From assembly GCA_900757715.1 (NCBI GenBank), contig CAAEOZ010000090.1, positions 2,740 to 66,739 on the forward strand: a stretch of DNA of 64,000 bases, in the 5' to 3' direction. Both the position numbers and the translations under genes were made by a program. Position 1 is the stretch's first letter, and the number at the start of each line of letters is the position of its first letter. Shown in pieces: positions 26,937-62,105 of this stretch. Source of the stretch: an uncultured Veillonella sp. (GTDB lineage: Bacteria; Bacillota; Negativicutes; Veillonellales; Veillonellaceae). The notes below the pieces were generated by a model. It was not told the DNA's origin. It saw nothing but the letters and a program-made list of their open reading frames with translations, and made no database searches.

Positions 26937-27018
26937 TTTGAATATCTATTTTTAGATATGTAGATTAAATTTATTTAAATACTTTATGTGACTATTTATA
27001 GTCTTAAGTCTTATTTGC

Positions 27019-27075
27019 AGGCACGTTCTCACGAGTGTAGTATACTTATACTAATGAGAACGTGCTTATTGTTGT
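27019..27075 (+). promoter_or_regulatory. leader hairpin with a conserved loop (tagtatacttatactaat) 15 nt upstream of the RBS of paralog 1
   Basis: 5' arm gcacgttctca pairs with 3' arm tgagaacgtgc, then cttattgttgttt and RBS gagagg. Compare 30731..30790. Confidence 0.5.
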
Positions 27076-27089
27076 TTGAGAGGTGTTAT

Positions 27090-28313
27090 ATGAAATTAAA
27101 AAGTATATTGTTGGGATTGGCTGTAGCGCTAGCTTTTACCATGCCTATTTATGCGGCGCAGTATACTGTTCCTGAAGGGCAACCACCTGTGCCAGGGGCT
27201 GATGCAAGTATTCCAGATAATGCGTATCAGAACTATCGTTATGGTGATATTCGTAAAGCGCCTAATTTTGAAATACAAGAGGTACTTAAGCTTAGATATA
27301 AAGAGATAGATGAGCTTGTTCGTAATCGCAAGATAAGTGTAGAAGATGCAGAAGCACTTAAGAAAGTAAATGTTAAGTATATGGATTTGACTTCTCATGA
27401 TTCTACGGTCATACTACTACATGAAGATGGCTTTAATGCTAAGATGACGGCACCTATTAGAGCTGTAACTGGGATATTTACTCCTTTAAAGTCTGATGGT
27501 ATTACGTCTTTTGCTGTAGACCGTTATGCACTTGCATCGCTTTCAGGTACTATAGTAACAACTGAGGACAACTATAATGAAAATAGCGAATTGCGTAAAG
27601 GTATGTTTATTTATCCTGGTTTTAAATCGGCCTATTGGAGCATAAGTGATGAATCAGTAAGAAATGATAGTCCTATGATTTTAGCTTATGTTACATTTGA
27701 TAGTGATTCTAATCGACATTATATTGTTGGATTAAGTAAATTTCACCAACCAAATGTAAAGGAACTAGAAACAGAAATGGCTAATGTCGTGATTCCCTCT
27801 ATCCAGCTGTTAGATGAATTAGCACGTATTAGTAATCTTGTTAAATGGGATAATATTACGTATCGCTTGCCTAAAGGGATGATGTTGAAAGCGGAAGAAA
27901 AGGTTGATTCTGAGTATAGTAGGCGAGTATATTATGGTCAAGGGTTAGAGTTAGTTATTGATAGAGGTCCTATTGTACATGATGATAGTGCAATGAGTGG
28001 ATACTTTAATCGTATTTTTGCGGATTACCTCTATGGTTCTTCATCACCTTTATTACGAGATATACCAATTCAATCGGCCATAGTCTGGAATAACGGTGTA
28101 CCTACATATCTTATGGATCAACATAATCCAGGTAAACAATCACATATATTCCAATTAATACAAGACAATCAGTATGAATATGATATGCATCTTACCTATG
28201 AGGATGGAAAGGCAAAATATAATCATATTGAACTACGCAATATAATGGAATATTTAGATTTTAAAAATGCTAAAGAGTTAAGAAGAAAAGCAGAAATAAA
28301 GACAAAGAAATAA
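27090..28313 (+). CDS. secreted protein, paralog family member 1 (unknown function)
   Basis: Signal peptide MKLKSILLGLAVALAFTMPIYA. Motifs VPEGQPPVPGADASIPDNAYQNYRY, VIPSIQLL, WDNITYRLPK, VWNNGVP and LRNIMEYLDF are shared with the 30808 and 33709c products. Confidence 0.75.
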   Translation: MKLKSILLGLAVALAFTMPIYAAQYTVPEGQPPVPGADASIPDNAYQNYRYGDIRKAPNFEIQEVLKLRYKEIDELVRNRKISVEDAEALKKVNVKYMDLTSHDSTVILLHEDGFNAKMTAPIRAVTGIFTPLKSDGITSFAVDRYALASLSGTIVTTEDNYNENSELRKGMFIYPGFKSAYWSISDESVRNDSPMILAYVTFDSDSNRHYIVGLSKFHQPNVKELETEMANVVIPSIQLLDELARISNLVKWDNITYRLPKGMMLKAEEKVDSEYSRRVYYGQGLELVIDRGPIVHDDSAMSGYFNRIFADYLYGSSSPLLRDIPIQSAIVWNNGVPTYLMDQHNPGKQSHIFQLIQDNQYEYDMHLTYEDGKAKYNHIELRNIMEYLDFKNAKELRRKAEIKTKK

Positions 28314-28329
28314 GCAAAAGAAATACATA

Positions 28330-28358
28330 AAAGGCCGTACCTTTTGGTACGGTCTTTG
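28330..28358. terminator. terminator hairpin
   Basis: aaaggccgtacc ttttg gtacggtcttt, with A/T runs on both sides. Confidence 0.55.
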
Positions 28359-28395
28359 CTACATTTATCTATATATTCCTATTATTCGTTCCTTA

Positions 28396-28424
28396 TTGTA
28401 TCGTATATTAGTTCGTTCTATAAT
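28396..28424 (+). promoter_or_regulatory. sigma-70-type promoter for the small toxin-like ORF (-35 ttgtat, 17-bp spacer, -10 tataat)
   Basis: Consensus-like -10 tataat at 28419-28424. Conserved in copy 3 (32621-32649). Confidence 0.5.
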
Positions 28425-28485
28425 AGACTTAGGATAGTTAGATGAGGTTGGGCCTCTCTTCGTCATCGAAGGGAGGGATAAGCCT

Positions 28486-28587
28486 ATGAGTGATTATGAA
28501 ATAATCATGCTCTTATTACAGGTAATAACGGTTGTTATTGCCTTTGGGGCATTAATAGCGCTTATTTGTCTCACAAAAGACAAATAG
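28486..28587 (+). CDS. 33-aa hydrophobic peptide, type I toxin-like (resembles Fst/holin-like-toxin small membrane peptides)
   Basis: MSDYEIIMLLLQVITVVIAFGALIALICLTKDK: one TM helix with a charged C-terminus. The SD gggagg is buried in the 5'-UTR hairpin cctctcttcg/cgaagggagg (28453-28476). Confidence 0.55.
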   Translation: MSDYEIIMLLLQVITVVIAFGALIALICLTKDK

Positions 28588-28687
28588 CCCTCCGTTGCCT
28601 AGTGTAACTAGATAACTGAAAGGCCATTTCCTAATCTTTTTTTTCAATTTCGAGATGCGCCTGACGTTTCGACTCGTCTGACTATCT
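28560..28687 (-). ncRNA. putative cis-antisense RNA (type I antitoxin candidate); 5' end inferred, 3' end unknown
   Basis: Minus-strand promoter: -35 TTGACG (28717-28722 revcomp), 17-bp spacer, -10 TATAAT (28694-28699 revcomp). It points into the 3' end of the peptide ORF and is conserved in all three copies. Confidence 0.4.
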
Positions 28688-28878
28688 TCTTATATTATAG
28701 TAAGGTTATTATATATCGTCAAATTATGATGAACACGTGTATGGCATACAGTTTGATGAGGGTATTGTAAAATGAGAAAACTCCTATTGGCTTTCACCGA
28801 TAGGAGTTTTTGGTTTTATAATTGTAATTTTATAGTACTTTTAGGCCTATTATTAAGTCACAGATTATAACAAACTAA

Positions 28879-30297
28879 TTATATTTCTTTTACATCATCA
28901 GGTATAGCCGGAGGAGCGGGTGGTTTACCCATAGATCTTTCAATGAACACCACAGCCACAAAGACGATGAGGCTGACGATGGAACCAAAGATGATGGACA
29001 TGATGCCATATGGATTGCCAACAAATTCCCAGTACACGCCTGCGATGGAGCCGAGTACGATGGACCAAATGCCAGCGCCAGCTGTTGCATTTTTCCAAGT
29101 GAGGCCAAGTAGGAATGCAGCGAATGGGCCAGCGGATCTCATTGTGAAAGCAAATACGAGCATCGGAATGATGGCTTTGCTTACGAGGGAGATGATGATG
29201 GCGATGATGCCGAGGAATAGCACGCACAGACGGCTGTAATTTGTGAGCTGAGCGTCAGTGAGGCTTTTACCAAAATGATGTTCCACAATATCCTTGGTAA
29301 ATACTGTTGCGGCACCTAAGAGGTCGCCTGCGCCTGATGAAAGCGTAGCCGACACGACCGCAGCCATAACGAAGCCTGCCATTACAGGAGGCATGAGGTT
29401 AAGCGCTACCGTTGCCACCGCATTGTTCGCTTCGATGTTCGGGAATTCAGCCAATGCTACGAGGCCTAAAACCGCAGGAACAAAGGCGAATAGAGCCATG
29501 ATAATACCACAAATGATAGAACCGAGAACGGCCGTTCTCTCATCCTTCGCTGCAAAGTACCGTTGTACGGATTCTTGGCCGGTGGAGAAGGTCATGAAGT
29601 ACATAATGATGAGGCCGATGATGGTTTTCCAACCAACCTTCGTAAATCCTAATTGTTCAGGCGGCAATTTCGCCACTACCGATTCCCAGCCGCCCACATT
29701 GTGCAATACGAATGGCACCGCGAGGGAGAAGCCCCCAACGAGGACGAAGAAATGGATAACGTCCGTCATCGTAACGCTCCACATACCGCCGGACATGGTA
29801 TAAATTACGAGTACCGCGCCGCAGATGAGGATGGCGAGCTCTGTTGAAAGCCCTGTGAGAACGCTAATAATAGTTGCAGTTGCTGTAATCTGTACGCCTG
29901 CTAGTGTGATTGTTGCCAGCATGGACAGAATGGAAGTAATGAGATGGCTAGATGCGCCGAAACGACGGCCGATGATCTCTGGCACTGTTGTTGCCATGGC
30001 ACGCCGTAAGAGCGGTGCAATGAAAGCAACGAGGATAACACCAATCCCTGCAGATACTACGTACCAACCTGCAGATAAACCCCAAGAACCATACGCTTTC
30101 GCTGCTACACCTACGGTGCTCCCACCACCGATTTCTGTAGCTGCTAATGTGCCTGCCGTCATAAGAACCCCAATACGACGACCTGCGAGTAGATAGTCAG
30201 TACTATCTTTTACACGAATATGACAATACACGCCGACTAATAAATTCAGTAATAAATAGGCGCAAACAATAATCCAAATAATAGTCAGAGAATCCAT
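28879..30297 (-). CDS. sodium:solute symporter (SSS family)
   Basis: 472 aa, ~13 TM; N-terminal YLLAGRRIGVLMTAGTLAATEIGGGSTVGVAAKAY is typical of SSF transporters. Confidence 0.8.
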   Translation of the reverse strand: MDSLTIIWIIVCAYLLLNLLVGVYCHIRVKDSTDYLLAGRRIGVLMTAGTLAATEIGGGSTVGVAAKAYGSWGLSAGWYVVSAGIGVILVAFIAPLLRRAMATTVPEIIGRRFGASSHLITSILSMLATITLAGVQITATATIISVLTGLSTELAILICGAVLVIYTMSGGMWSVTMTDVIHFFVLVGGFSLAVPFVLHNVGGWESVVAKLPPEQLGFTKVGWKTIIGLIIMYFMTFSTGQESVQRYFAAKDERTAVLGSIICGIIMALFAFVPAVLGLVALAEFPNIEANNAVATVALNLMPPVMAGFVMAAVVSATLSSGAGDLLGAATVFTKDIVEHHFGKSLTDAQLTNYSRLCVLFLGIIAIIISLVSKAIIPMLVFAFTMRSAGPFAAFLLGLTWKNATAGAGIWSIVLGSIAGVYWEFVGNPYGIMSIIFGSIVSLIVFVAVVFIERSMGKPPAPPAIPDDVKEI

Positions 30298-30457
30298 ATG
30301 ACACCTCCAAAAATTTACACTATCTAGAGATTCATACTAAATCACCCTTACTACTTGCGGTGCATATATCAAGTATAGTTTAATTATCCATAAAAACTGG
30401 GGAAAATACAAAGAGGAGTTTTATTGCTTGTTGGAGAATATATATACATTGGGAATA

Positions 30458-30485
30458 AAAAAGCCCGTTATTAACGGGATTTTTG
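30458..30485. terminator. small bidirectional terminator hairpin (gcccgtta/taacgggat)
   Basis: aaaaagcccgtta ttaacggg atttttg. On the minus strand it would terminate the copy-2 antisense transcript. Confidence 0.5.
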
Positions 30486-30526
30486 GGGCATTAATAGCAC
30501 TTATTTGTCTCATAAAAGACAAATAG
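30483..30526 (+). pseudogene. 5'-truncated remnant of the type I toxin-like peptide ORF (copy 2)
   Basis: Only ...FGALIALICLIKDK* remains (tttggggcattaatagcacttatttgtctcataaaagacaaatag). The promoter, SD and N-terminus are missing. Confidence 0.5.
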
Positions 30527-30624
30527 CCCTTCGTTATCTTAGATGATTCGATAACTGAAAGGCCATTTCTCAAGATTTTCTGTTTTTAGAGATGCGCCTG
30601 ACGTTACGACTCGTCTGACTATCT
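30500..30624 (-). ncRNA. putative cis-antisense RNA, copy 2 (downstream conserved element retained)
   Basis: Minus-strand -35 TTGACG (30654-30659), 17-bp spacer, -10 TATAAT (30631-30636). The conserved block gatgcgcctgacgt...actcgtctgactatct is present. Confidence 0.4.
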
Positions 30625-30730
30625 ACCTATATTATAGGGATAAAGATTTATATCGTCAAATTGAGATGAACCTCATATATTAAATAGAAACAAACCTCAT
30701 GCATAGTGAAATATAAAGTTATAAATAATA

Positions 30731-30790
30731 GGCACAATCTTATTTGCATAGTATACTTATGCTAATAAGATTGTGCTTATTTATGTTGTA
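30731..30790 (+). promoter_or_regulatory. leader hairpin with the same conserved loop (tagtatacttatgctaat) upstream of paralog 2; arms covary relative to copy 1
   Basis: 5' arm gcacaatcttatt pairs with 3' arm aataagattgtgc, then cttatttatgttg and RBS gagaggg. Confidence 0.5.
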
Positions 30791-30807
30791 AATTTAGAGA
30801 GGGTTTT

Positions 30808-32067
30808 ATGTTACGTAAAAGTTTCCTACTGATGACAGCGATAGCTGCTTTCACCATGAATGCAAGCGCTGTGCAGATCGAAGTGCCAAAAGGGCAACCA
30901 CCTGTGCCTGGAGCGGATGCAAGTATTCCTGCTAATGCGTATGAGAATTATCGTCATGTTAATGAGGTAGCGGAGAAAAAAGCAGAGTCATATAGTCAAT
31001 TTGTAAAATCAAAACCTACAAATCCTCCATCTGCCTTTGATAAGCTGAATTTGGAACACCCTGGTTTTGCTAAGGCTTTGGAGCTTGCAGATTATTCGCA
31101 GTCTACAGTGGTATTGATTCATGAAGGAAATAAAAATATCAGGCTATCTGTACCAAATGTCAGCTTTCGCGGTGATGTTGTAGAGTCTCCATCTGGAAAA
31201 GAAGGTCCTTTTTTTGCTATTAGAAGCTTAAGTACATTTTTGGTAGTAGGCCCGCCTCATGGTAAAGCACTTGATGCATATTCTGAAAGTAAAGGAAAAT
31301 ATATGTATCCAGAATTAAGGAATGCATCTTGGAAGTTTATGTCGAACAGTGCTCGTGTGATGTATACGGAATTCACACCGAATGATACAAAAACTGCCTA
31401 TGGCATTACCTATGGTGGTTGGGTAAATACGGAAGATCCGTACCAAGATCAAGCACCTGAAGTGGTAATGAGTAATTATATCATTCCGTCCATAGAATCC
31501 TTAGCTGGATTAGATAACTATAGTCAGATTGAGCATTGGGACAATTTTAACTATCGTATTCCTAAGACGGCTAAGCTTGTGAGTGTATCTGTAGAAAATG
31601 AGATACATGAGGTGAGAACCTATGAGGATACAGGGGTTAAAATACGGGTAATACGTAGCGCAATCAGGAGTAAAGAGACAGATAACACGCTGATTAAGGT
31701 TCCAATAATATATTATTTACATAAATATAATGATTTGGAGACACCTACACAGTACGCCGTAGTGTGGAATAACGGAATTCCTGGTTCTTTAGTTGATGAC
31801 TATAAACCCAATCGTGAATCCTATCTTCGTCATGTTATGAAAGATTCTGTATACTATTACAGTTATCGCATTAATTATGATGAAAGTAAAACGTCTTATA
31901 CACATAAACAGCTAAGAGATATGATTGAATATGTGGGATTTGATGATGCGGCAAGATTACGAAAAGAGCCACAATGCCGAGAGAAAGGGTCATATAAGGA
32001 GAGACTCGAAAATAGCCCAGTATTTATCCCTTGGTATATGGAATGGGTTAAACTGTTGACTCAATAG
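30808..32067 (+). CDS. secreted protein, paralog family member 2
   Basis: Signal peptide MLRKSFLLMTAIAAFTMNASA, then VPKGQPPVPGADASIPANAYENYRH, IIPSIESL, WDNFNYRIPK, VVWNNGIPGSLVDD and LRDMIEYVGF. Confidence 0.75.
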   Translation: MLRKSFLLMTAIAAFTMNASAVQIEVPKGQPPVPGADASIPANAYENYRHVNEVAEKKAESYSQFVKSKPTNPPSAFDKLNLEHPGFAKALELADYSQSTVVLIHEGNKNIRLSVPNVSFRGDVVESPSGKEGPFFAIRSLSTFLVVGPPHGKALDAYSESKGKYMYPELRNASWKFMSNSARVMYTEFTPNDTKTAYGITYGGWVNTEDPYQDQAPEVVMSNYIIPSIESLAGLDNYSQIEHWDNFNYRIPKTAKLVSVSVENEIHEVRTYEDTGVKIRVIRSAIRSKETDNTLIKVPIIYYLHKYNDLETPTQYAVVWNNGIPGSLVDDYKPNRESYLRHVMKDSVYYYSYRINYDESKTSYTHKQLRDMIEYVGFDDAARLRKEPQCREKGSYKERLENSPVFIPWYMEWVKLLTQ

Positions 32068-32115
32068 AAAATTTTGCTTTTTTAAGCTTGTATAATATTA
32101 GATAGGAGAGAGCCA

Positions 32116-32517
32116 ATGAGTAAACTCAAATACATCAAAATTATATTAGTGCTTTTGCTTAAGGCTTATCTCATTTATCTATGGGTCAACTTCGTAGGGG
32201 CGTTTACTCATCTACTCTATTATATTTATATATTGAAAGTTTTTTCATTGGAGGATTTCGGATTATTTCTATTCTTTCTCTTTGGTAATATATGTTGTAT
32301 TCTGTGGCTTGTTTTATGGTGTAAGCGATTACCGCCGGCTTTTAATAAGCCCAAAATATATTATGAAATTAAAGACTGGATTCGATCTAAGAAAGAAGAA
32401 GCACCTATCTATAAAGTTTTATTTGGCAGTTTATTGCTTTTGCTAAAGCTATGTCTTGTAGTGTATATCTTAATTACAGCTTTCATGATTTTAAGCATTC
32501 CAGTAATATACCTTTGA
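32116..32517 (+). CDS. small multi-TM membrane protein (hypothetical)
   Basis: 133 aa, 3-4 hydrophobic helices. RBS aggagagag before ATG 32116. Confidence 0.45.
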   Translation: MSKLKYIKIILVLLLKAYLIYLWVNFVGAFTHLLYYIYILKVFSLEDFGLFLFFLFGNICCILWLVLWCKRLPPAFNKPKIYYEIKDWIRSKKEEAPIYKVLFGSLLLLLKLCLVVYILITAFMILSIPVIYL

Positions 32518-32620
32518 ACTTCTATCAAATGTTAAATAGACTAAAAAGCCGAGCTACTATGTTGATTAAGTAGCTCGGCTTTTATTAGTTTATTCATATA
32601 TTTATATAATATGGTTTTTA

Positions 32621-32649
32621 TTGTATCGTATATTAGTTTGCTCTATAAT
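32621..32649 (+). promoter_or_regulatory. promoter of toxin-like ORF copy 3 (-35 ttgtat, 17-bp spacer, -10 tataat)
   Basis: Same sequence context as copy 1 (tattgtatcgtatattagtt.g.tctataatagacttaggatagt). Confidence 0.5.
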
Positions 32650-32708
32650 AGACTTAGGATAGTCAGACGAGGTTGGGCTTCTCTTCGTTTTTGAAGGGAG
32701 GGGTGCTT

Positions 32709-32837
32709 ATGAGTGGGTATAAAATTATTATGGTTATCCTTGGGATTTTATCAGTCATGATATCCTTTGGAGCACTTGTGGCGCTTATTTGTCTAGAAAT
32801 AGCAAAATGGCCCTTCGTTTCTTCGGAAATTAGATAA
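32709..32837 (+). CDS. 42-aa hydrophobic peptide, type I toxin-like (copy 3; C-terminally extended because the ancestral stop is lost)
   Basis: MSGYKIIMVILGILSVMISFGALVALICLEIAKWPFVSSEIR. Where copy 1 has tag, this copy reads tgg. The SD is sequestered by cttctcttc/gaagggagg (32678-32701). Confidence 0.5.
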   Translation: MSGYKIIMVILGILSVMISFGALVALICLEIAKWPFVSSEIR

Positions 32838-32908
32838 AACGAAAAGGCCATTTCTACATATTATTAGTTTGTGAGATGAGCCTGACGTCACTACTCGTCT
32901 GACTATCT
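32800..32908 (-). ncRNA. putative cis-antisense RNA, copy 3
   Basis: Minus-strand -35 TTGACG (32938-32943), 17-bp spacer, -10 TATAAT (32915-32920). Hairpin aaatggcccttcgtt/aacgaaaaggccattt at 32810-32858. Confidence 0.4.
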
Positions 32909-32966
32909 ACCTATATTATAGGGGTAAAGATTTATATCGTCAAATTGAGATAAACTGGAGGTCCTT

Positions 32967-33503
32967 ATGAAACCATTTGAAACGAAGGATTACAAAGCTT
33001 TTACCATATTCGAGGAGCGTTGGGCTCTTGTTACGGCCGGTACGCCTGATGATTTCAACACTTGTACGGTTAGTTGGGGCAGTATGGGCAACGTGTGGGG
33101 CCCGAATGGCGGCGATATGTCTACGGTGACGGTGTACATTCATCCAGCCCGCTATACGCAGGAATTTATGGCAAAATACGATACCTTTACCGTTAGTTTC
33201 TTCCCTGAAAGCTATCGCAAGGCGCTTGGTTACTTAGGATCTCATTCTGGTCGAGACGAAGATAAGGTAGCTAACTCTGGACTAACACCAGTTGCAGCAG
33301 GTGATGGCGTGACTTTCAAAGAAGCAGAGTTAACATTTGTATGTAAAAAGCTATATGAACATCAATTTGACGAATCTCATTTAGCAGCCCATGTAAAGGA
33401 ATATTATGCAGCGAATCCGTCCATGTATACCCAAGCTGGTAAGGATCGTTGGGAACCTCATTATATGTACATCGGCGAAGTAGTTGATGCCATAGAGGGC
33501 TAG
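32967..33503 (+). CDS. flavin reductase-like (FMN-binding split-barrel) family protein
   Basis: 178 aa; WALVTAGTPDDFNTCTVSWGSMGNVWGP is typical of flavin-reductase-like domain proteins. RBS ggagg. Confidence 0.7.
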   Translation: MKPFETKDYKAFTIFEERWALVTAGTPDDFNTCTVSWGSMGNVWGPNGGDMSTVTVYIHPARYTQEFMAKYDTFTVSFFPESYRKALGYLGSHSGRDEDKVANSGLTPVAAGDGVTFKEAELTFVCKKLYEHQFDESHLAAHVKEYYAANPSMYTQAGKDRWEPHYMYIGEVVDAIEG

Positions 33504-33708: not shown

Positions 33709-35043
33709 CTATGCTTCTGGAAATAGAACATGTTCTTGCATTTTAAAATTAGGATTATTGGTAGAATCAAAGAACTCAATCATATTCCGTAATTTTTGAA
33801 CTTCCTCAGCACTTAAAAAACTTGGATAGAAGATAGTATAAGTAAAACTATATATGCCATCATAGGAGTTAAAGTTTAGAATGTGATCATCCTTATTAGG
33901 TTCATAGCTGTGTATGGATAGACCAGGGATGTTATTGTTCCATACAACTGAGTAATTGATATAGTCTGATGCTGATGGATGGTAACGGTAAATATCCCAG
34001 AACGTATTTAAATCAGTTTTAAAATTGTAATGACCATTTATAACAAGTTCACGGGCATATGGGTTTTTAGGAACATTGTCAGTAGAAATAAAGAATGTTA
34101 TGTCTCCTTTTTTGTAGTATCTAATATCTTGGTGGTCGGTGCCCTTACTTTCACCTTCGTATATGGCGTCTTTTGGTACGCGGTATTGTACACCGTTTAA
34201 GCTTTCTATGCGTGAATATTGATTTAATTCATTTAGGTTTTGTACAGAGGGAAGCACATAATTAGCCAATAATTTATCTGTAGGAACCTTATTCAGAACG
34301 GGGTTGTTATCATAATAGACAAACCCTGCGTGATATAAGGGATGACGCATGTTATAGCCCTTAAATTTAAAATTTATTGTGTCGATGGTGAGCGTTGTTT
34401 TTTTACCGTTTTTAAGGTGTGGCATTTTCATGCTATCCCAAGTGCTGTAGGTAACAGTAGGATATGAAAATACAGTGCCTTTTATATCAGAAATGTGTTT
34501 TGCTGGATTACGTTTTGCCATGTCCTGAAAGAAATCACGAACATTCTTGTCGGTTAGTTTTTCATAAGCTATTTTTGTGTTACGCCAGTCATAGTCTTTG
34601 TAATCAGCATAGTCAATTTCTAAATTGAGACTTCCGTTATCGGTTAATACTCGATAGTCCTCAATGGTTCGACTTGGATTTTTGTAACGTCTTATATTAT
34701 AATCACTTTTTATGCCTGCAACGGGGAATGAAAGCCGAATTTGGTTGTATTGATCATGAATGGAGATGACTGTATTATGGTAATGTTGACCGCGATATAT
34801 AGAGGCTGCTTTAGCATACTTAATTTCGTTTTTACTAATACCGTTAGCCTTGTCAGTTGCTTTTAATGTTTCCACATAGTTTACTACATCCTTTTCAATA
34901 TCAGGGTTTGTGGCTTGGTAGTTTACGTAGGCATCCTTTGGAATCTTCGAATCTGCACCAGGGATATTAACATCGATAGCTCCTACTGGTGATAATATAG
35001 TGCTTATCATGAAAGCACCCGCTAATAATGGTAGTTTTGTCAT
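33709..35043 (-). CDS. secreted protein, paralog family member 3
   Basis: Signal peptide MTKLPLLAGAFMISTILSPVGA, then NIPGADSKIPKDAYVNYQ, VLPSVQNL, YSVVWNNNIPGLS and LRNMIEFFD. Confidence 0.75.
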   Translation of the reverse strand: MTKLPLLAGAFMISTILSPVGAIDVNIPGADSKIPKDAYVNYQATNPDIEKDVVNYVETLKATDKANGISKNEIKYAKAASIYRGQHYHNTVISIHDQYNQIRLSFPVAGIKSDYNIRRYKNPSRTIEDYRVLTDNGSLNLEIDYADYKDYDWRNTKIAYEKLTDKNVRDFFQDMAKRNPAKHISDIKGTVFSYPTVTYSTWDSMKMPHLKNGKKTTLTIDTINFKFKGYNMRHPLYHAGFVYYDNNPVLNKVPTDKLLANYVLPSVQNLNELNQYSRIESLNGVQYRVPKDAIYEGESKGTDHQDIRYYKKGDITFFISTDNVPKNPYARELVINGHYNFKTDLNTFWDIYRYHPSASDYINYSVVWNNNIPGLSIHSYEPNKDDHILNFNSYDGIYSFTYTIFYPSFLSAEEVQKLRNMIEFFDSTNNPNFKMQEHVLFPEA

Positions 35044-36541: not shown

Positions 36542-36751
36542 GGGAGATAAGCAGAGATTAGTTAACAATAGTTTTTGCGCATGATTGAGTTTACATAATT
36601 GAATTTGTTGTTATGTGGAATTGGGTGTACACTAAAATCGATGAGGCGATAGCGACTCATCTCATGTTGGCCCGCTTTATATAAACACATATACTCTCTC
36701 TCTCCTAAGCGGGTCTATCATTAGTTCTCTCTCAACGCTATAAACTATACA

Positions 36752-39144: not shown

Positions 39145-39214
39145 GAACGGACCTATCTCTAAAAGCCTCCATAGCGAGCTAAGTCATTTTTAGAGATAGG
39201 TCCGTTCCTTTTTT
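39145..39214. repeat. hairpin repeat copy C (21-bp perfect arms; conserved loop gcctccatagcgagctaagtca)
   Basis: ggaacggacctatctctaaaa [loop] ttttagagataggtccgttcc plus tttttt. Confidence 0.75.
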
Positions 39215-39243
39215 ATACAATTTATGAAATTAGAGCAACAACC

Positions 39244-39296
39244 GGGGGCTATAGGGAGGCTAAGTCATTTTTAGAGATAGGGGCTTTTCCTTTTAT
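39244..39296. repeat. degenerate hairpin repeat copy D (5' arm largely lost)
   Basis: ...ggggctatagggaggctaagtca tttttagagataggggcttttcc. Confidence 0.55.
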
Positions 39297-39317
39297 ATGA
39301 AATTAGTATCTTCAAAT

Positions 39318-39380
39318 AGGACCTATTAAAATAACCTCCATAGCGAGCTAAGTCGTTTTTAGGGACCTGTTCTTTCTTGT
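39318..39380. repeat. hairpin repeat copy E (imperfect arms; loop acctccatagcgagctaagtcg)
   Basis: aggacctattaaaataa [loop] tttttagggacctgttc. Confidence 0.6.
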
Positions 39381-39706
39381 TTTCAATAAAGAAATTAGAG
39401 CTCACGACTAGGATCTCTTTTACGGTTAAGATATTTTTCATTTATCAAAAATTTTGATTTGTATATAACTTATATATTTTGTATAATATTAACACAATAG
39501 ATATACCCCTATGGGTAATATAAAATTTAGAATAGAAACAAAAGGTACTCCAGATCGGTAGTTGATTACTGTTAGGTTAATATTAGTACGATATTAACAC
39601 AAGATTAGTGTCATATTGCATGGGTGTACCTTACTATTTAACAAATTGTTTTGTATTTTATTTCCGGATTAAGTAAGGCCGGTATCTCATTTATAGAGAG
39701 GTCTAT

Positions 39707-59062: not shown

Positions 59063-59282
59063 AGGTTCTCCTTTCACTATAACACGTATATACGTGTTAT
59101 ACAATGGATAGGCGTATAGTTTATTCATTTGTAGTCTAGCATCGTTTGTATCATTATAGTGGTGACTATTGGTCACCTATGTTCCTATTAGTCACTTGAC
59201 AATATAGTTTTGTATAATGAATAGCATGAATTGAATAAATAGGGATAAGAGGTAAATTAAATAAGTGTAATATTAGTGTGTA

Positions 59283-59325
59283 AAAAAGCTGTATCAAATG
59301 GTAATGTCATTTGATACAGCTTTTT
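59283..59325. terminator. bidirectional terminator hairpin (repeat copy 1 of agctgtatcaaatg..atgtcatttgatacagct)
   Basis: aaaaagctgtatcaaatg gtaatgtc atttgatacagcttttt. A near-identical copy is at 60721..60765. Confidence 0.75.
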
Positions 59326-59335
59326 GTATAGCTAA

Positions 59336-59686
59336 TTATTTCGTTTGCTTTGGTTGATTGGACATGGTGTATATGGCAAGTGCTATCCAAATACAGGAGA
59401 AGGCAATGATGTTTGGTATATCAAAGCTTTCTTCAAAATAGAAAATAGATAGTAAAAATATAATTGTAGGAGCTAAATATTGAAGAAAGCCTAGTAGGTT
59501 GAGTGGTAATAGTTGAGCTCCGTAGGAGAAAAGGATAAAAGGAACTGCTGTAGTTAAACCACAGCCCATGAGGAGCAAAGCAGTGTACCAGTCTGTGCTA
59601 AAATAAGACCAAGAGGTAGTATCGAAGACAGTTGTGTATAGCAAGGCTAGCGGTGTTAAGAGCCAAGCTTCAACGGCACCTAGCAC
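59336..59686 (-). pseudogene. rarD (EamA-family) C-terminal fragment; diverged partial duplicate of 60786..61682
   Basis: ...EAWLLTPLALLYTTVFDTTSWSYFSTDWYTALLLMGCGLTTAVPFILFSYGAQLLPLNLLGFLQYLAPTIIFLLSIFYFEESF... aligns residue for residue with the C-terminal 115 aa of the full-length gene. No N-terminal half. Confidence 0.65.
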
Positions 59687-60720: not shown

Positions 60721-60765
60721 AAAAGAAAGCTGTATCAAATGAGAATGTCATTTGATACAGCTTTT
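60721..60765. terminator. bidirectional terminator hairpin (repeat copy 2)
   Basis: aaagaaagctgtatcaaatg agaatgtc atttgatacagcttttt. Confidence 0.75.
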
Positions 60766-60785
60766 TAGTTGATATACGATATATC

Positions 60786-61682
60786 TTACTTTTTTAGGCT
60801 AATGCGCGTTGTAATTTGGCTTGATAAGGAGAATAATACTAAGGCTATCCAGATACAACCGAAGGCGATCATTTGTGGTGTGCCAAAGCTTTCACCAAAG
60901 TAAAAGATGGCTAGCAACAAGGCAATGGTAGGGGATACATATTGCAGGAAGCCTAGTAGGTTGAGCGGCAATAGTTGCGCACCATAGGAGAATAGCACCA
61001 ATGGAACAGATGTAGTTAGACCGCAGGCTATGAGCAGCATGGAGGTATACCAGTCTGTGCCGAAATAAGACCACACTGTATTATCGATCATGGTCGTATA
61101 TAGTAAGGCTAGCGGTGTTAATAGCCAGGCCTCAAAGGCGATGCTCGTAAAGGGAGAGATGAGTAGTTTCTTTTTTACGGCCCCATAAAGACCGAAGGAA
61201 ACGGCGAGGATCATCGATACTAACGGCAAGGATCCTACTTGATAGGTGAGTAAGGCGATGCCGATGGTAGCGATGAGGACACTCAGCTTTTTCGGTATAG
61301 ATAGAACCTCTTTAAATAGGATGACACCTAATACTACATTGAAGAGTGGGTTGATGTAATAGCCAAGGCTCGTGTTCATAACTTGATTATTGGCGATGGC
61401 CCAAATGTAGGTGAACCAGTTTACGCTGATGATGACTGCCGCAACTAAAAGTAGGAATAGTTGTGAACGTTGTTCTTTTAGTAATTGAAAGTCCTTTTTG
61501 AATTGTTTAAAATGTAGGCCAAATACAACGATCGCCATGCAAATACCTGACCAGATAATGCGTTGTGCCAGTATATTATACGGTGAAACATGGTTTAATA
61601 ATGCCCAATATAGAGGGAGTAAGCCCCAAATTATATAACAACTAAGGGCTGTGATTAACCCTTTTTTACTTGTATGGTCCAT
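60786..61682 (-). CDS. rarD: RarD (EamA/DMT family) membrane protein
   Basis: MDHTSKKGLITALSCYIIWGLLPLYW..., 10 TM, two EamA halves. RBS gaggagg. The ORF-track start at 61703 is less likely. Confidence 0.8.
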   Translation of the reverse strand: MDHTSKKGLITALSCYIIWGLLPLYWALLNHVSPYNILAQRIIWSGICMAIVVFGLHFKQFKKDFQLLKEQRSQLFLLLVAAVIISVNWFTYIWAIANNQVMNTSLGYYINPLFNVVLGVILFKEVLSIPKKLSVLIATIGIALLTYQVGSLPLVSMILAVSFGLYGAVKKKLLISPFTSIAFEAWLLTPLALLYTTMIDNTVWSYFGTDWYTSMLLIACGLTTSVPLVLFSYGAQLLPLNLLGFLQYVSPTIALLLAIFYFGESFGTPQMIAFGCIWIALVLFSLSSQITTRISLKK

Positions 61683-61883
61683 AATGCCTCCTCGTGATAG
61701 CACTTATTATATCATTAATTCTTAAATTCTTAACCCATGCATTTTAGTTATTACATATGATTTTCAGTTATAACTTTGATTTTGGCACTTATGATTAAAT
61801 GTTATGTTCATTGACTTTGTGCATATTGTTACACTATATTGGACTTAGAACAACGAATATAGAGAATAGGTGTCGTAAGACTT

Positions 61884-62012
61884 AATAGAGAAATCGGTAT
61901 AAGCCGATGCGGTCCCGCCACTGTAAGGATGAGCCTGCTTTCATATATGTCACTGGAGTAATCTGGGAAGGCGAAAGCGAGGTGATGATCCCGAGCCAGG
62001 AGAACTGCCTAT
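61884..62012 (+). promoter_or_regulatory. cobalamin (AdoCbl) riboswitch aptamer
   Basis: aatagagaaatcggtataagccgatgcggtcccgccactgtaagg matches the conserved core AATAGGGAA..GGTG.AA.TCC...GCGGTCCCGCCACTGTAA (B12 box GCCACTG). The 3' element gagccaggagaactgcc matches AGYCAGGA.ACCTGCC. Confidence 0.75.
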
Positions 62013-62105
62013 TTGATAATCACCGTTATGTACCTACGAGCGATAGGAAGGGGATTGGGGTATGCTGTCTACAGTATTTTTTAGTGTACCTTTCAATAAG
62101 AAACC

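Follow-up and report, generated by a model that had tools for sequence, protein, structure and literature searches.

The stretch of DNA analysed here, a 64,000-nt window from an uncultured Veillonella sp. of the V. parvula group, carries three copies of a repeated unit of about 370 nt. Our results suggest that this unit is most probably a chromosomal type I toxin-antitoxin module resembling bsrG/SR4, that it belongs to an undescribed and essentially Veillonella-restricted family, and that its third copy represents a variant allele of a single strain. This reading is carried by features of the sequence, their conservation across the family, strand-specific base-pairing, the coding signature of a short open reading frame (ORF) and the rarity of the copy 3 allele. 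All coordinates refer to the window, and promoters as well as RNA starts and ends are predictions throughout. A repeat search located the copies as follows.

28364-28734, + strand: copy 1, intact, with a canonical 33-aa ORF at 28486-28587 ending in the stop codon TAG, and an antisense promoter at 28722-28694
30480-30671, + strand: copy 2, a 3' remnant in which the antisense promoter (30659-30631) and the 3' box are intact
32589-32955: copy 3, whose individual features are listed below

Across leader and promoter, copy 3 (32589-32702) and copy 1 (28364-28477) share 84% identity. According to a three-way alignment, the toxin promoter, the leader and the first ~18 codons are replaced in copy 2, and only the 3' half is common to it and copies 1 and 3; the 3' halves thus form a three-copy repeat family (28543-28734, 30482-30671 and 32766-32955). 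A 16-nt box occurs five times in the window, against 0.45 occurrences expected, and the RNAs of the unit fold with z-scores between -2.9 and -6.6. An earlier note on this DNA had described three copies of a unit like those of type I toxin-antitoxin systems, with a leader that sequesters the ribosome-binding site and an antisense promoter (TTGACG/TATAAT, placed at 32915-32943), and had proposed that a change from tag to tgg lengthens the peptide of copy 3 to 42 aa; the repeat search, the promoter matches with their counterparts in the other two copies and the reading frame bear out this description. The parts of a type I module are indeed present: the ORF is small and hydrophobic, its ribosome-binding site is sequestered, and the antisense promoter is convergent with that of the toxin. 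In copy 3, the unit comprises the following features.

32621-32649, + strand: predicted toxin promoter (-35 TTGTAT at 32621-32626, 17-nt spacer, -10 TATAAT at 32644-32649)
32657-32671, + strand: P1-like 5' arm of a long-range helix, GGATAGTCAGACGAG, at the mRNA 5' end, pairing with 32894-32908
32679-32700, + strand: ribosome-binding-site hairpin, UUCUCUUCG (32679-32687) paired with UGAAGGGAG (32692-32700), with the Shine-Dalgarno (SD) sequence GGGAGG at ~32696-32703
32709-32837, + strand: toxin-like ORF of 42 codons, from ATG at 32709 to TAA at 32835-32837, with the product MSGYKIIMVILGILSVMISFGALVALICLEIAKWPFVSSEIR
32808-32810, + strand: codon 34, TGG as opposed to TAG in copies 1 and 2, by a change of A to G at 32809
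32805-32853, - strand: stop-codon hairpin, interpreted as the site of intrinsic termination for the antisense RNA, with a + strand counterpart corresponding to stem-loop SL3 of bsrG
32873-32882, + strand: near-invariant GAGATGAGCC box, with the predicted partner GGCCAUUUC (32846-32854) in the ancestral TAG mRNA
32894-32908, + strand: 3' arm of the long-range helix, CTCGTCTGACTATCT, the complement of which forms the predicted first 15 nt of the antisense RNA
32797-32908, - strand: predicted antisense (antitoxin) RNA of ~110 nt, with a 5' hairpin and a terminator (fold z-score -4.37)
32915-32943, - strand: antisense promoter (-35 TTGACG at 32943-32938, 17-nt spacer, -10 TATAAT at 32920-32915; 11 of 12 matches)

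Both promoters are conserved across 77 distinct units, in which the -10 element of the toxin promoter is invariant, TTGTATCG is kept, and the two hexamers of the antisense promoter are likewise retained. The toxin promoter, from which transcription is predicted to start at ~32656, is the weaker of the two, its -35 hexamer matching the consensus at three of six positions and falling under the filter of the promoter scan, whereas the antisense promoters of all three copies tie for the top score in 28200-33100 and occupy the same position in the unit. The -10 element of the antisense promoter lies within a near-palindrome, CCTATATTATAGG (within 32909-32966).

Pair counts, fold energies and codon entropies were obtained from an alignment of 71 distinct units from other genomes. 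Its 33 toxin codons contain no indels, and entropies of 0.51, 0.19 and 0.85 for codon positions 1, 2 and 3 add to the pattern of a coding sequence. Judged by its sequences, the canonical peptide is hydrophobic from residue 5 to residue 29 and has MSDYE and KDK-type termini on either side of this core, so that, as is generic for type I toxins, it appears as a hydrophobic peptide of fewer than 60 aa with one membrane helix, under purifying selection. In copy 3, residues 1-33 correspond to this conserved single-helix peptide, while residues 34-42, WPFVSSEIR, stem from read-through. The ATG at 32709 is preceded by GGGAGG at a suitable distance. In-frame TTG and ATG codons further upstream, from which gene callers derive products of 54 aa, 47 aa and similar lengths, were rejected as starts, as they lie inside the conserved leader hairpin and are not accompanied by an SD sequence. 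Two other short frames were likewise set aside: a 42-aa ORF at 36562-36690 (- strand), called in the fetched locus L001, is neither hydrophobic nor related to the toxin family, and a 32-aa GTG-initiated ORF on the antisense strand (32793-32891) has a start that, by reading of the alignment, is not conserved in other copies. With their 33 codons, the genes of this family escape annotation or are given wrong upstream starts.

The structure of the + strand RNA is supported by natural variation. The leader box GGATAGTCAGACGAG is the reverse complement of 32894-32908, and the two boxes co-vary across the family; 99.1% of the cells in the resulting 15-bp helix are paired, with three compensatory pairs (UA/UG/CG, GC/GU/AU and AU/GU/GC) and six one-sided changes. 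As a control, shifting the partners by 1-3 columns reduced pairing to 35-50% for the whole structure. Counted as + strand RNA, 1047 of 1056 cells are paired, compared to 882 of 1056 as - strand RNA, with 168 G·U against 3 A·C combinations. This asymmetry argues for selection on the + strand RNA rather than for a symmetry of the DNA, and a + strand helix in turn requires that the toxin mRNA reach at least 32908. The helix was predicted independently by RNAalifold on the 71 units and by single-sequence folding of the extended mRNAs of copy 3 (z-score -6.55) and copy 1 (-5.93); in copy 3 it contains a C-G pair where most copies have U-G. For the nine pairs of the ribosome-binding-site hairpin, which is present in every single-sequence fold, the bias has the same direction: all 639 cells pair in the + strand RNA as opposed to 506 in the - strand RNA, with 133 G·U and no A·C combinations. 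The RNAalifold consensus further pairs columns 204-212 with columns 237-246, joining GGCCAUUUC to the GAGATGAGCC box, in which the single commonly variable position (A/C) is a bulged base.

The inverted repeat underlying the long-range helix might also be read as the transposition end of a mobile or miniature transposable element, a reading to which several copies per genome, the rearrangement of the region between strains and the 15-nt repeat itself would lend some colour. The repeat, however, accepts G·U while excluding A·C, and it is internal to the unit rather than at its ends. Moreover, the unit has no match on plasmids, phages or viral contigs and no associated transposase, and in one locus (L038) the unit is itself the target into which an IS200-like gene has inserted. 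We therefore regard this explanation as barely plausible. The insertion in L038 (2600-2900) places an IS200/IS605-like transposase gene (MSMNDVKSLSHSKWRCKYHIVFAPKYRR...) directly after TAGCCCTTCGTT of the unit, replacing the stop-codon hairpin and the antisense half.

The stop-codon hairpin shows the opposite strand preference. Folded as - strand RNA it has a mean free energy of -21.4 kcal/mol, compared to -12.2 kcal/mol for the + strand, and in 71 of 71 units the - strand form is the more stable. All 567 cells of the outer stem are paired on the - strand, compared to 497 of 567 on the + strand, where the stem is weakened because the A of TAG opposes a C; the inner stem contains compensatory changes. 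A hairpin that is stable only on the - strand is best understood as the terminator of a - strand RNA from the conserved promoter. Complementarity of the predicted antisense RNA would extend over the final codons of the toxin, the hairpin at the stop codon and the 3' arm of the long-range helix, and the antisense gene would thus overlap the toxin mRNA, as is generic for type I antitoxins. Taken as strand-specific pairing signatures, these data indicate that two convergent RNAs are probably made from the unit. Counting G·U against A·C in 71 natural variants was sufficient to assign three RNA helices to their strands, and the two-transcript architecture could in this way be recovered from sequence variants alone.

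What we infer from sequence, conservation and analogy is the toxicity of the peptide, the existence and the ends of the two transcripts, how the antisense RNA acts and what the copy 3 mutation does. The weak promoter would give rise to a + strand mRNA of at least ~253 nt (~32656 to at least 32908). Its product would be a membrane peptide of 33 aa with a single helix, and the mRNA would be held untranslated by the 9-bp ribosome-binding-site hairpin together with the 15-bp helix between its 5' end and the 3' box. The stronger, convergent promoter would produce an antisense RNA of ~110 nt (~32908 to ~32797). By analogy with SR4, its binding would begin at hairpin loops and then spread; the 5' end of the mRNA would be displaced, the ribosome-binding site would stay closed, and the double-stranded RNA thus formed would be available to RNase III.

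The model for this scheme is bsrG/SR4. In bsrG mRNA, as established by structure probing, nt 1-35 pair with nt 232-262 in helix P1, the stem of SL1 harbours the SD sequence and the 5' part of SL3 the stop codon, while SL3 together with the 3' half of P1 forms the region to which SR4 is complementary (PMC3834814). Upon SR4 binding, nt 1-33 become single-stranded, the SD helix grows from 4 to 8 bp, and decay is RNase III-dependent (PMC3834814). The architectural match of the Veillonella unit is clear as far as its sequence can be read: both systems would encode a small hydrophobic peptide starting with M-[ST]-x-Y-E-x-x-M, with a convergent antisense RNA over the 3' part of the mRNA and an antitoxin promoter nearer to consensus than the toxin promoter. 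In both, the mRNA 5' end would pair with a 3' segment, here in the 15-bp helix, with a stem atop P1 holding the SD sequence and the following stem-loop holding the stop codon in its 5' arm. The antitoxin would again find its complement in this stem-loop and in the 3' half of P1 (PMC3834814), the latter on the condition that the antisense RNA starts, as predicted, 6-8 nt past the -10 element at ~32908. The two systems also differ in several respects. The Veillonella P1 has 15 bp, as opposed to ~30 in bsrG, the SD hairpin already comprises 9 bp in the free mRNA, and the antisense RNA, with ~110 nt instead of ~180, is predicted to start exactly at the end of P1, which is not followed by a terminator equivalent to SL4 of bsrG. 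While bsrG resides in the SPbeta prophage of Bacillus subtilis, the host of the present unit is a diderm Firmicute (Negativicutes), in which the unit is chromosomal and multi-copy and has no match in prophage or plasmid records.

Other type I systems share individual elements of this design. The B. subtilis pairs txpA/RatA and bsrE/SR5, which act by RNase III-dependent mRNA decay, also have 3'-overlapping antisense RNAs, and their peptides match the Pfam family Hol_Tox; TxpA, however, has 59 aa with a long C-terminal tail, and sequence similarity to the Veillonella peptides is below threshold. The mRNAs of hok/sok from enterobacterial plasmids and aapA1/isoA1 from Helicobacter pylori are translationally inert at full length owing to 5'-3' end pairing (fbi/tac elements), and the Veillonella unit shares this locking principle. 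In those systems, though, the 5' region is where the antisense RNA acts, in hok/sok at the mok leader, and the mRNA becomes active only after trimming at its 3' end, whereas the Veillonella antisense RNA would target the 3' arm of the lock; its promoter sits at the 3' end, unlike in hok/sok, and the window peptides have no match to Hok/Gef. In fst/RNAII (par, Enterococcus pAD1), toxin and antitoxin RNAs are convergent and share a terminator region, as would those of the unit described here. There, direct repeats give rise to complementary 5' regions of the two RNAs; in Veillonella the repeat is inverted, so that the two RNAs would share GAUAGUCAGACGAG at their 5' ends, and the complementary segments are both part of the mRNA.

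Several observations weigh against this assignment or leave parts of it unexplained. BsrG (RF01412) is the sole Rfam family above noise, aligning over model positions 1-259 with helix P1 included (E = 0.027 for 5.2 kb searched, 0.0018 for 341 nt), yet it scores 22.4 bits against a gathering threshold of 55. Hol_Tox (PF16935) gives 14.2 bits for copy 3 and 12.5 bits for copy 1 against a threshold of 23.3, and the matches found at E < 1 for 9 of 12 family members (best E 0.0014) are also below threshold; such scores of short hydrophobic peptides are near compositional noise, with other membrane families reaching E-values of 0.05-0.1. Furthermore, the 320 nt beyond the 3' arm are devoid of an intrinsic terminator in 67 of 91 distinct downstream contexts, leaving the end of the toxin mRNA unexplained, and the pairing of GGCCAUUUC with GAGAUGAGCC rests solely on essentially invariant columns, so that it is not backed by covariation. 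Finally, the TGG allele is known from one strain, and the attenuation of the 42-aa peptide is something we infer.

Considering these low scores, one could ask whether the peptide is a small membrane protein other than a toxin that is kept under cis-antisense control, for example in connection with the neighbouring genes for secreted or membrane proteins, next to whose paralogs the units are repeatedly found. We consider this quite unlikely, for the architecture follows bsrG/SR4 point for point, and a transitive sequence link leads to Hol_Tox. The Hol_Tox model is passed by BsrG, TxpA and BsrE with 34.5, 31.3 and 50.9 bits, respectively, and it is also passed by P0162 (23.6 bits, core 25.6), a distant match of the Veillonella profile at E = 5.8e-4 among 1.84 billion proteins, while another peptide cluster, P0139, attains 21.2 bits. 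Distant homology between the Veillonella peptides and Hol_Tox is thus probable on the grounds of their sequences. Recurrent disruption of the toxin with the antisense half being kept, and copies located elsewhere (L045-L059) without the neighbour genes, likewise speak against a non-toxin role. In a metagenome (L083, 448-624), a distant relative with the core MTAYEIVMIVLGIIGIIISFGGLLVALIAFLDKKDKK passes Hol_Tox and has a hairpin directly 3' of its stop codon, as in the Veillonella units.

The toxin-antitoxin unit is widespread within one genus. With one genome per prokaryotic species, we obtained 195 tblastn-confirmed stretches, all from Veillonella (V. parvula, rogosae, dispar, atypica, infantium, denticariosi, hominis and fallax), save for one metagenome-assembled genome (MAG) labelled Mogibacterium. 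Genomes carry multiple units, with at least four in V. parvula f34. With a profile built from the two window peptides we recovered 219 peptide clusters, which lack Pfam domains and for which 'hypothetical protein' was the sole name, and an exhaustive HMMER search of 1.84 billion representatives yielded 49 matches at E <= 1e-3, nearly all of them family members or broken versions thereof. Rfam at gathering thresholds found nothing for the unit in the window, the only hit being a cobalamin riboswitch elsewhere; NCBIfam, PHROGs and PADLOC gave no match for the toxin peptides or the neighbour proteins, and searches of open-access papers brought up nothing relevant on type I systems of Veillonella or on the peptide motifs, the genus going unmentioned in the type I papers that were listed. 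If the assignment is correct, the family would extend the TxpA/BsrG/BsrE superfamily beyond the classical monoderm Firmicutes. Veillonella is a common oral and gut commensal with an outer membrane. The unit could also serve as a compact, native RNA-controlled module for V. parvula genetics. In seven peptide clusters (P0027, P0047, P0069, P0108, P0141, P0145 and P0151), the peptides turn into the same foreign tail GYRTKSV... from codon positions that differ between them, as if one element had inserted repeatedly, or a rearrangement had recurred, in the ORF or behind it.

Against this background, the longer frame of copy 3 stands out as an exception. A regular-expression scan of the fetched loci recovered 88 toxin ORFs, 87 of which have exactly 33 codons, the sole 42-codon ORF being that of L001. 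Codon 34 is TAG in 84 of the 86 units with full flanks and TGG in the window and L001 only, and the orthologous MSGYK-type copies of other genomes all finish with ...CLEIAK-stop at 33 aa; for these reasons the 42-aa form is to be seen as a private, recent allele. L001 (ENA ERZ773174) is 100% identical to the window across 8947 bp and hence represents the same strain, so that it does not provide independent replication of TGG. The earlier note had stated that its proposal would fall if other strains showed the 42-aa form to be a sequencing error, or the unit to be absent or not conserved. Measured by this, the outcome is mixed: the unit itself turned out to be strongly conserved across Veillonella, and the 42-aa form did not.

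Could TGG simply be a sequencing or assembly error for a true TAG? The codon differs by a single base from every relative, and the sole assembly that supports it may share its origin with the window. On the other hand, the contig name of L001 gives ~58x coverage, a depth at which substitution errors are rare, and other samples contain alleles with a comparable loss of the stop codon, codon 34 encoding W, Y or Q in the metagenomic peptide clusters P0001-P0007, P0009 and P0014. An error is thus very unlikely. The same clusters, together with the intact remainder of copy 3 (promoter, leader, long-range helix and antisense promoter), might be taken to mean that the 42-aa form is a selected functional variant, which either gains a new C-terminal tail or is regulated differently because ribosomes cross the hairpin targeted by the antisense RNA. 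However, none of 84 other genome-derived units and none of the orthologous MSGYK-type copies has it, and it is known from a single strain. Extended forms are over-represented among protein-database clusters because gene callers prefer longer ORFs, and the extension is merely whatever sequence comes downstream. We therefore judge a selected function unlikely, and take the change in copy 3 to be most likely a neutral-to-attenuating lesion, in a family whose toxins often decay, rather than a new function.

At the RNA level, the recent change of A to G at 32809 not only removes the stop codon of an otherwise intact copy, by which the peptide would gain WPFVSSEIR, but also closes the conserved A·C mismatch. 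The + strand hairpin is stabilised from -13.3 to -19.9 kcal/mol, making it the most stable of all 71 units, and the weak hairpin of the + strand would thereby become a stable, terminator-like one. In partition-function folds of the mRNA back-mutated to TAG, GGCCAUUUC pairs with GAGAUGAGCC at a probability of 0.9-1.0 and the outer stem of the hairpin is open, as in the RNAalifold consensus of the family; with TGG, the hairpin forms at ~0.9 and the alternative pairing drops to ~0.1, while the long-range helix retains a probability of 0.99 with either codon. The TGG allele is thus predicted to refold the 3' domain of the mRNA and to create, inside the toxin mRNA, a terminator-like hairpin followed by a U-rich stretch. 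Though minor in itself, the copy 3 allele is a natural single-base mutant that would alter both the frame and a conserved RNA fold, and as such offers a ready-made test case.

Damage to the toxin is not confined to copy 3. Four independent toxin-disrupting lesions retain the antisense promoter and the 3' box: copy 2 (30480-30671) has lost promoter, leader and ~18 codons; L002 (1-400) carries a 5' deletion with another junction, next to a flavin reductase identical to that of the window; L037 (2480-2720) has a third 5' deletion; and L036 (2440-2730) has a 1-nt frameshift at codon 9. To judge from their sequences, these lesions look like orphan-antitoxin remnants, as if there were pressure against the toxin. 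The antisense RNAs of the three window copies would be nearly identical over their first ~40 nt, with 82-92% identity over 88 nt, which makes cross-protection between the copies possible.

A sodium:solute symporter gene (28879-30297, - strand) borders the island that contains the three units, and the other border is formed by a gene that is a neighbour of copy 3 and not part of the unit.

32967-33503, + strand: flavin-reductase-like gene (PF01613, E = 5.6e-10), with its ribosome-binding site GGAGG at 32957-32961

The island is composed of modules that each comprise a secreted-protein paralog of ~420-440 aa, a small membrane protein and a unit, and its gene order and paralog content vary between strains; other units are found at unrelated loci lacking those neighbour genes, e.g. 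L045-L059. Blastn searches of plasmids and phages gave no match to the unit, nor did viral contigs contain an exact match to the conserved 17-mer of the leader. Of the suggestion in the earlier note that the unit is a mobile or recombinogenic repeat, mobility thus finds no backing, also in view of the fact that the inverted repeat reflects RNA pairing, while recombination remains plausible in an island that is rearranged between strains. That note had also stated that the antisense promoter abuts the flavin-reductase gene, and indeed the outer edge of its -35 element lies 13 nt from the ribosome-binding site and 23 nt from the ATG, with gene and promoter being divergent.

One may also ask whether copy 3 additionally acts as promoter and leader of the flavin-reductase gene, by read-through of the toxin transcript, in which case the gene would be under joint control of the antisense RNA and the mRNA fold; such a role would add to the toxin-antitoxin function rather than replace it. 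A consensus scan found no + strand promoter-like site other than the toxin promoter between the upstream terminator (~32538-32583) and 32967, and in copy 3 there is no terminator between the 3' box and the gene. Moreover, a spacing of 258-260 nt from the ATG of the toxin to that of the flavin reductase recurs in at least nine genomes (L003-L006, L012, L031, L036, L054 and L066) and with two toxin subtypes, MSGYK and MSDYE. Against this stand L002, which is without the toxin promoter and yet keeps an identical flavin-reductase protein, and the fact that simple consensus scans miss many real promoters; the public contigs encoding the identical flavin reductase are metagenomic. On balance, such a second role is doubtful, if worth keeping in view. 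Carried one step further, and with rather more doubt, the terminator-less toxin mRNA running into the flavin-reductase gene would turn the unit into a cassette of promoter and leader by which a metabolic gene is placed under RNA control. If so, the A-to-G change would, through the hairpin it creates, uncouple or lower flavin-reductase expression besides lengthening the peptide. In a broader sense, the units dispersed over the variable island of secreted-protein genes could mark the limits of transcription and serve as sites of recombination.

The secreted-protein paralogs of the island (26988-28313 and 30808-32067 on the + strand, 33709-35043 on the - strand) have signal peptides and 24-31% mutual identity, and are often followed by a small membrane protein such as that at 32116-32517 (+ strand). 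They have 1589 homologs, the one name shown being 'hypothetical protein' (from a Veillonella MAG), and no match in Pfam, PHROGs or PADLOC; an AlphaFold model computed from a 10-sequence alignment was poor, with a predicted local distance difference test (pLDDT) score of 43. About 20 nt upstream of the start codons of two of these paralogs, a 58-nt repeat (27019-27076 and 30730-30787, 76% identical) folds into a long hairpin, GCACGTTCTCA...TGAGAACGTGC, with T-rich sequence behind it; termination, attenuation or a function as leader element are conceivable roles.

Elsewhere in the window, a 54-nt element occurs three times at 39161-39383 with a spacing of 81-88 nt. Its first two copies look like long palindromic hairpins trailed by T runs (GGAACGGACCTATCTCTAAAA...TTTTTAGAGATAGGTCCGTTCC TTTTTT), and the elements resemble tandem REP-like terminators. 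A duplication of ~370 nt (59282-59653 and 60723-61115), with its copies 1.4 kb apart, contains a 44-nt hairpin that is 93% identical between them and 300 nt with 74% identity. The cobalamin riboswitch (RF00174) lies at 61851-62026 on the + strand and scores 102.6 bits.

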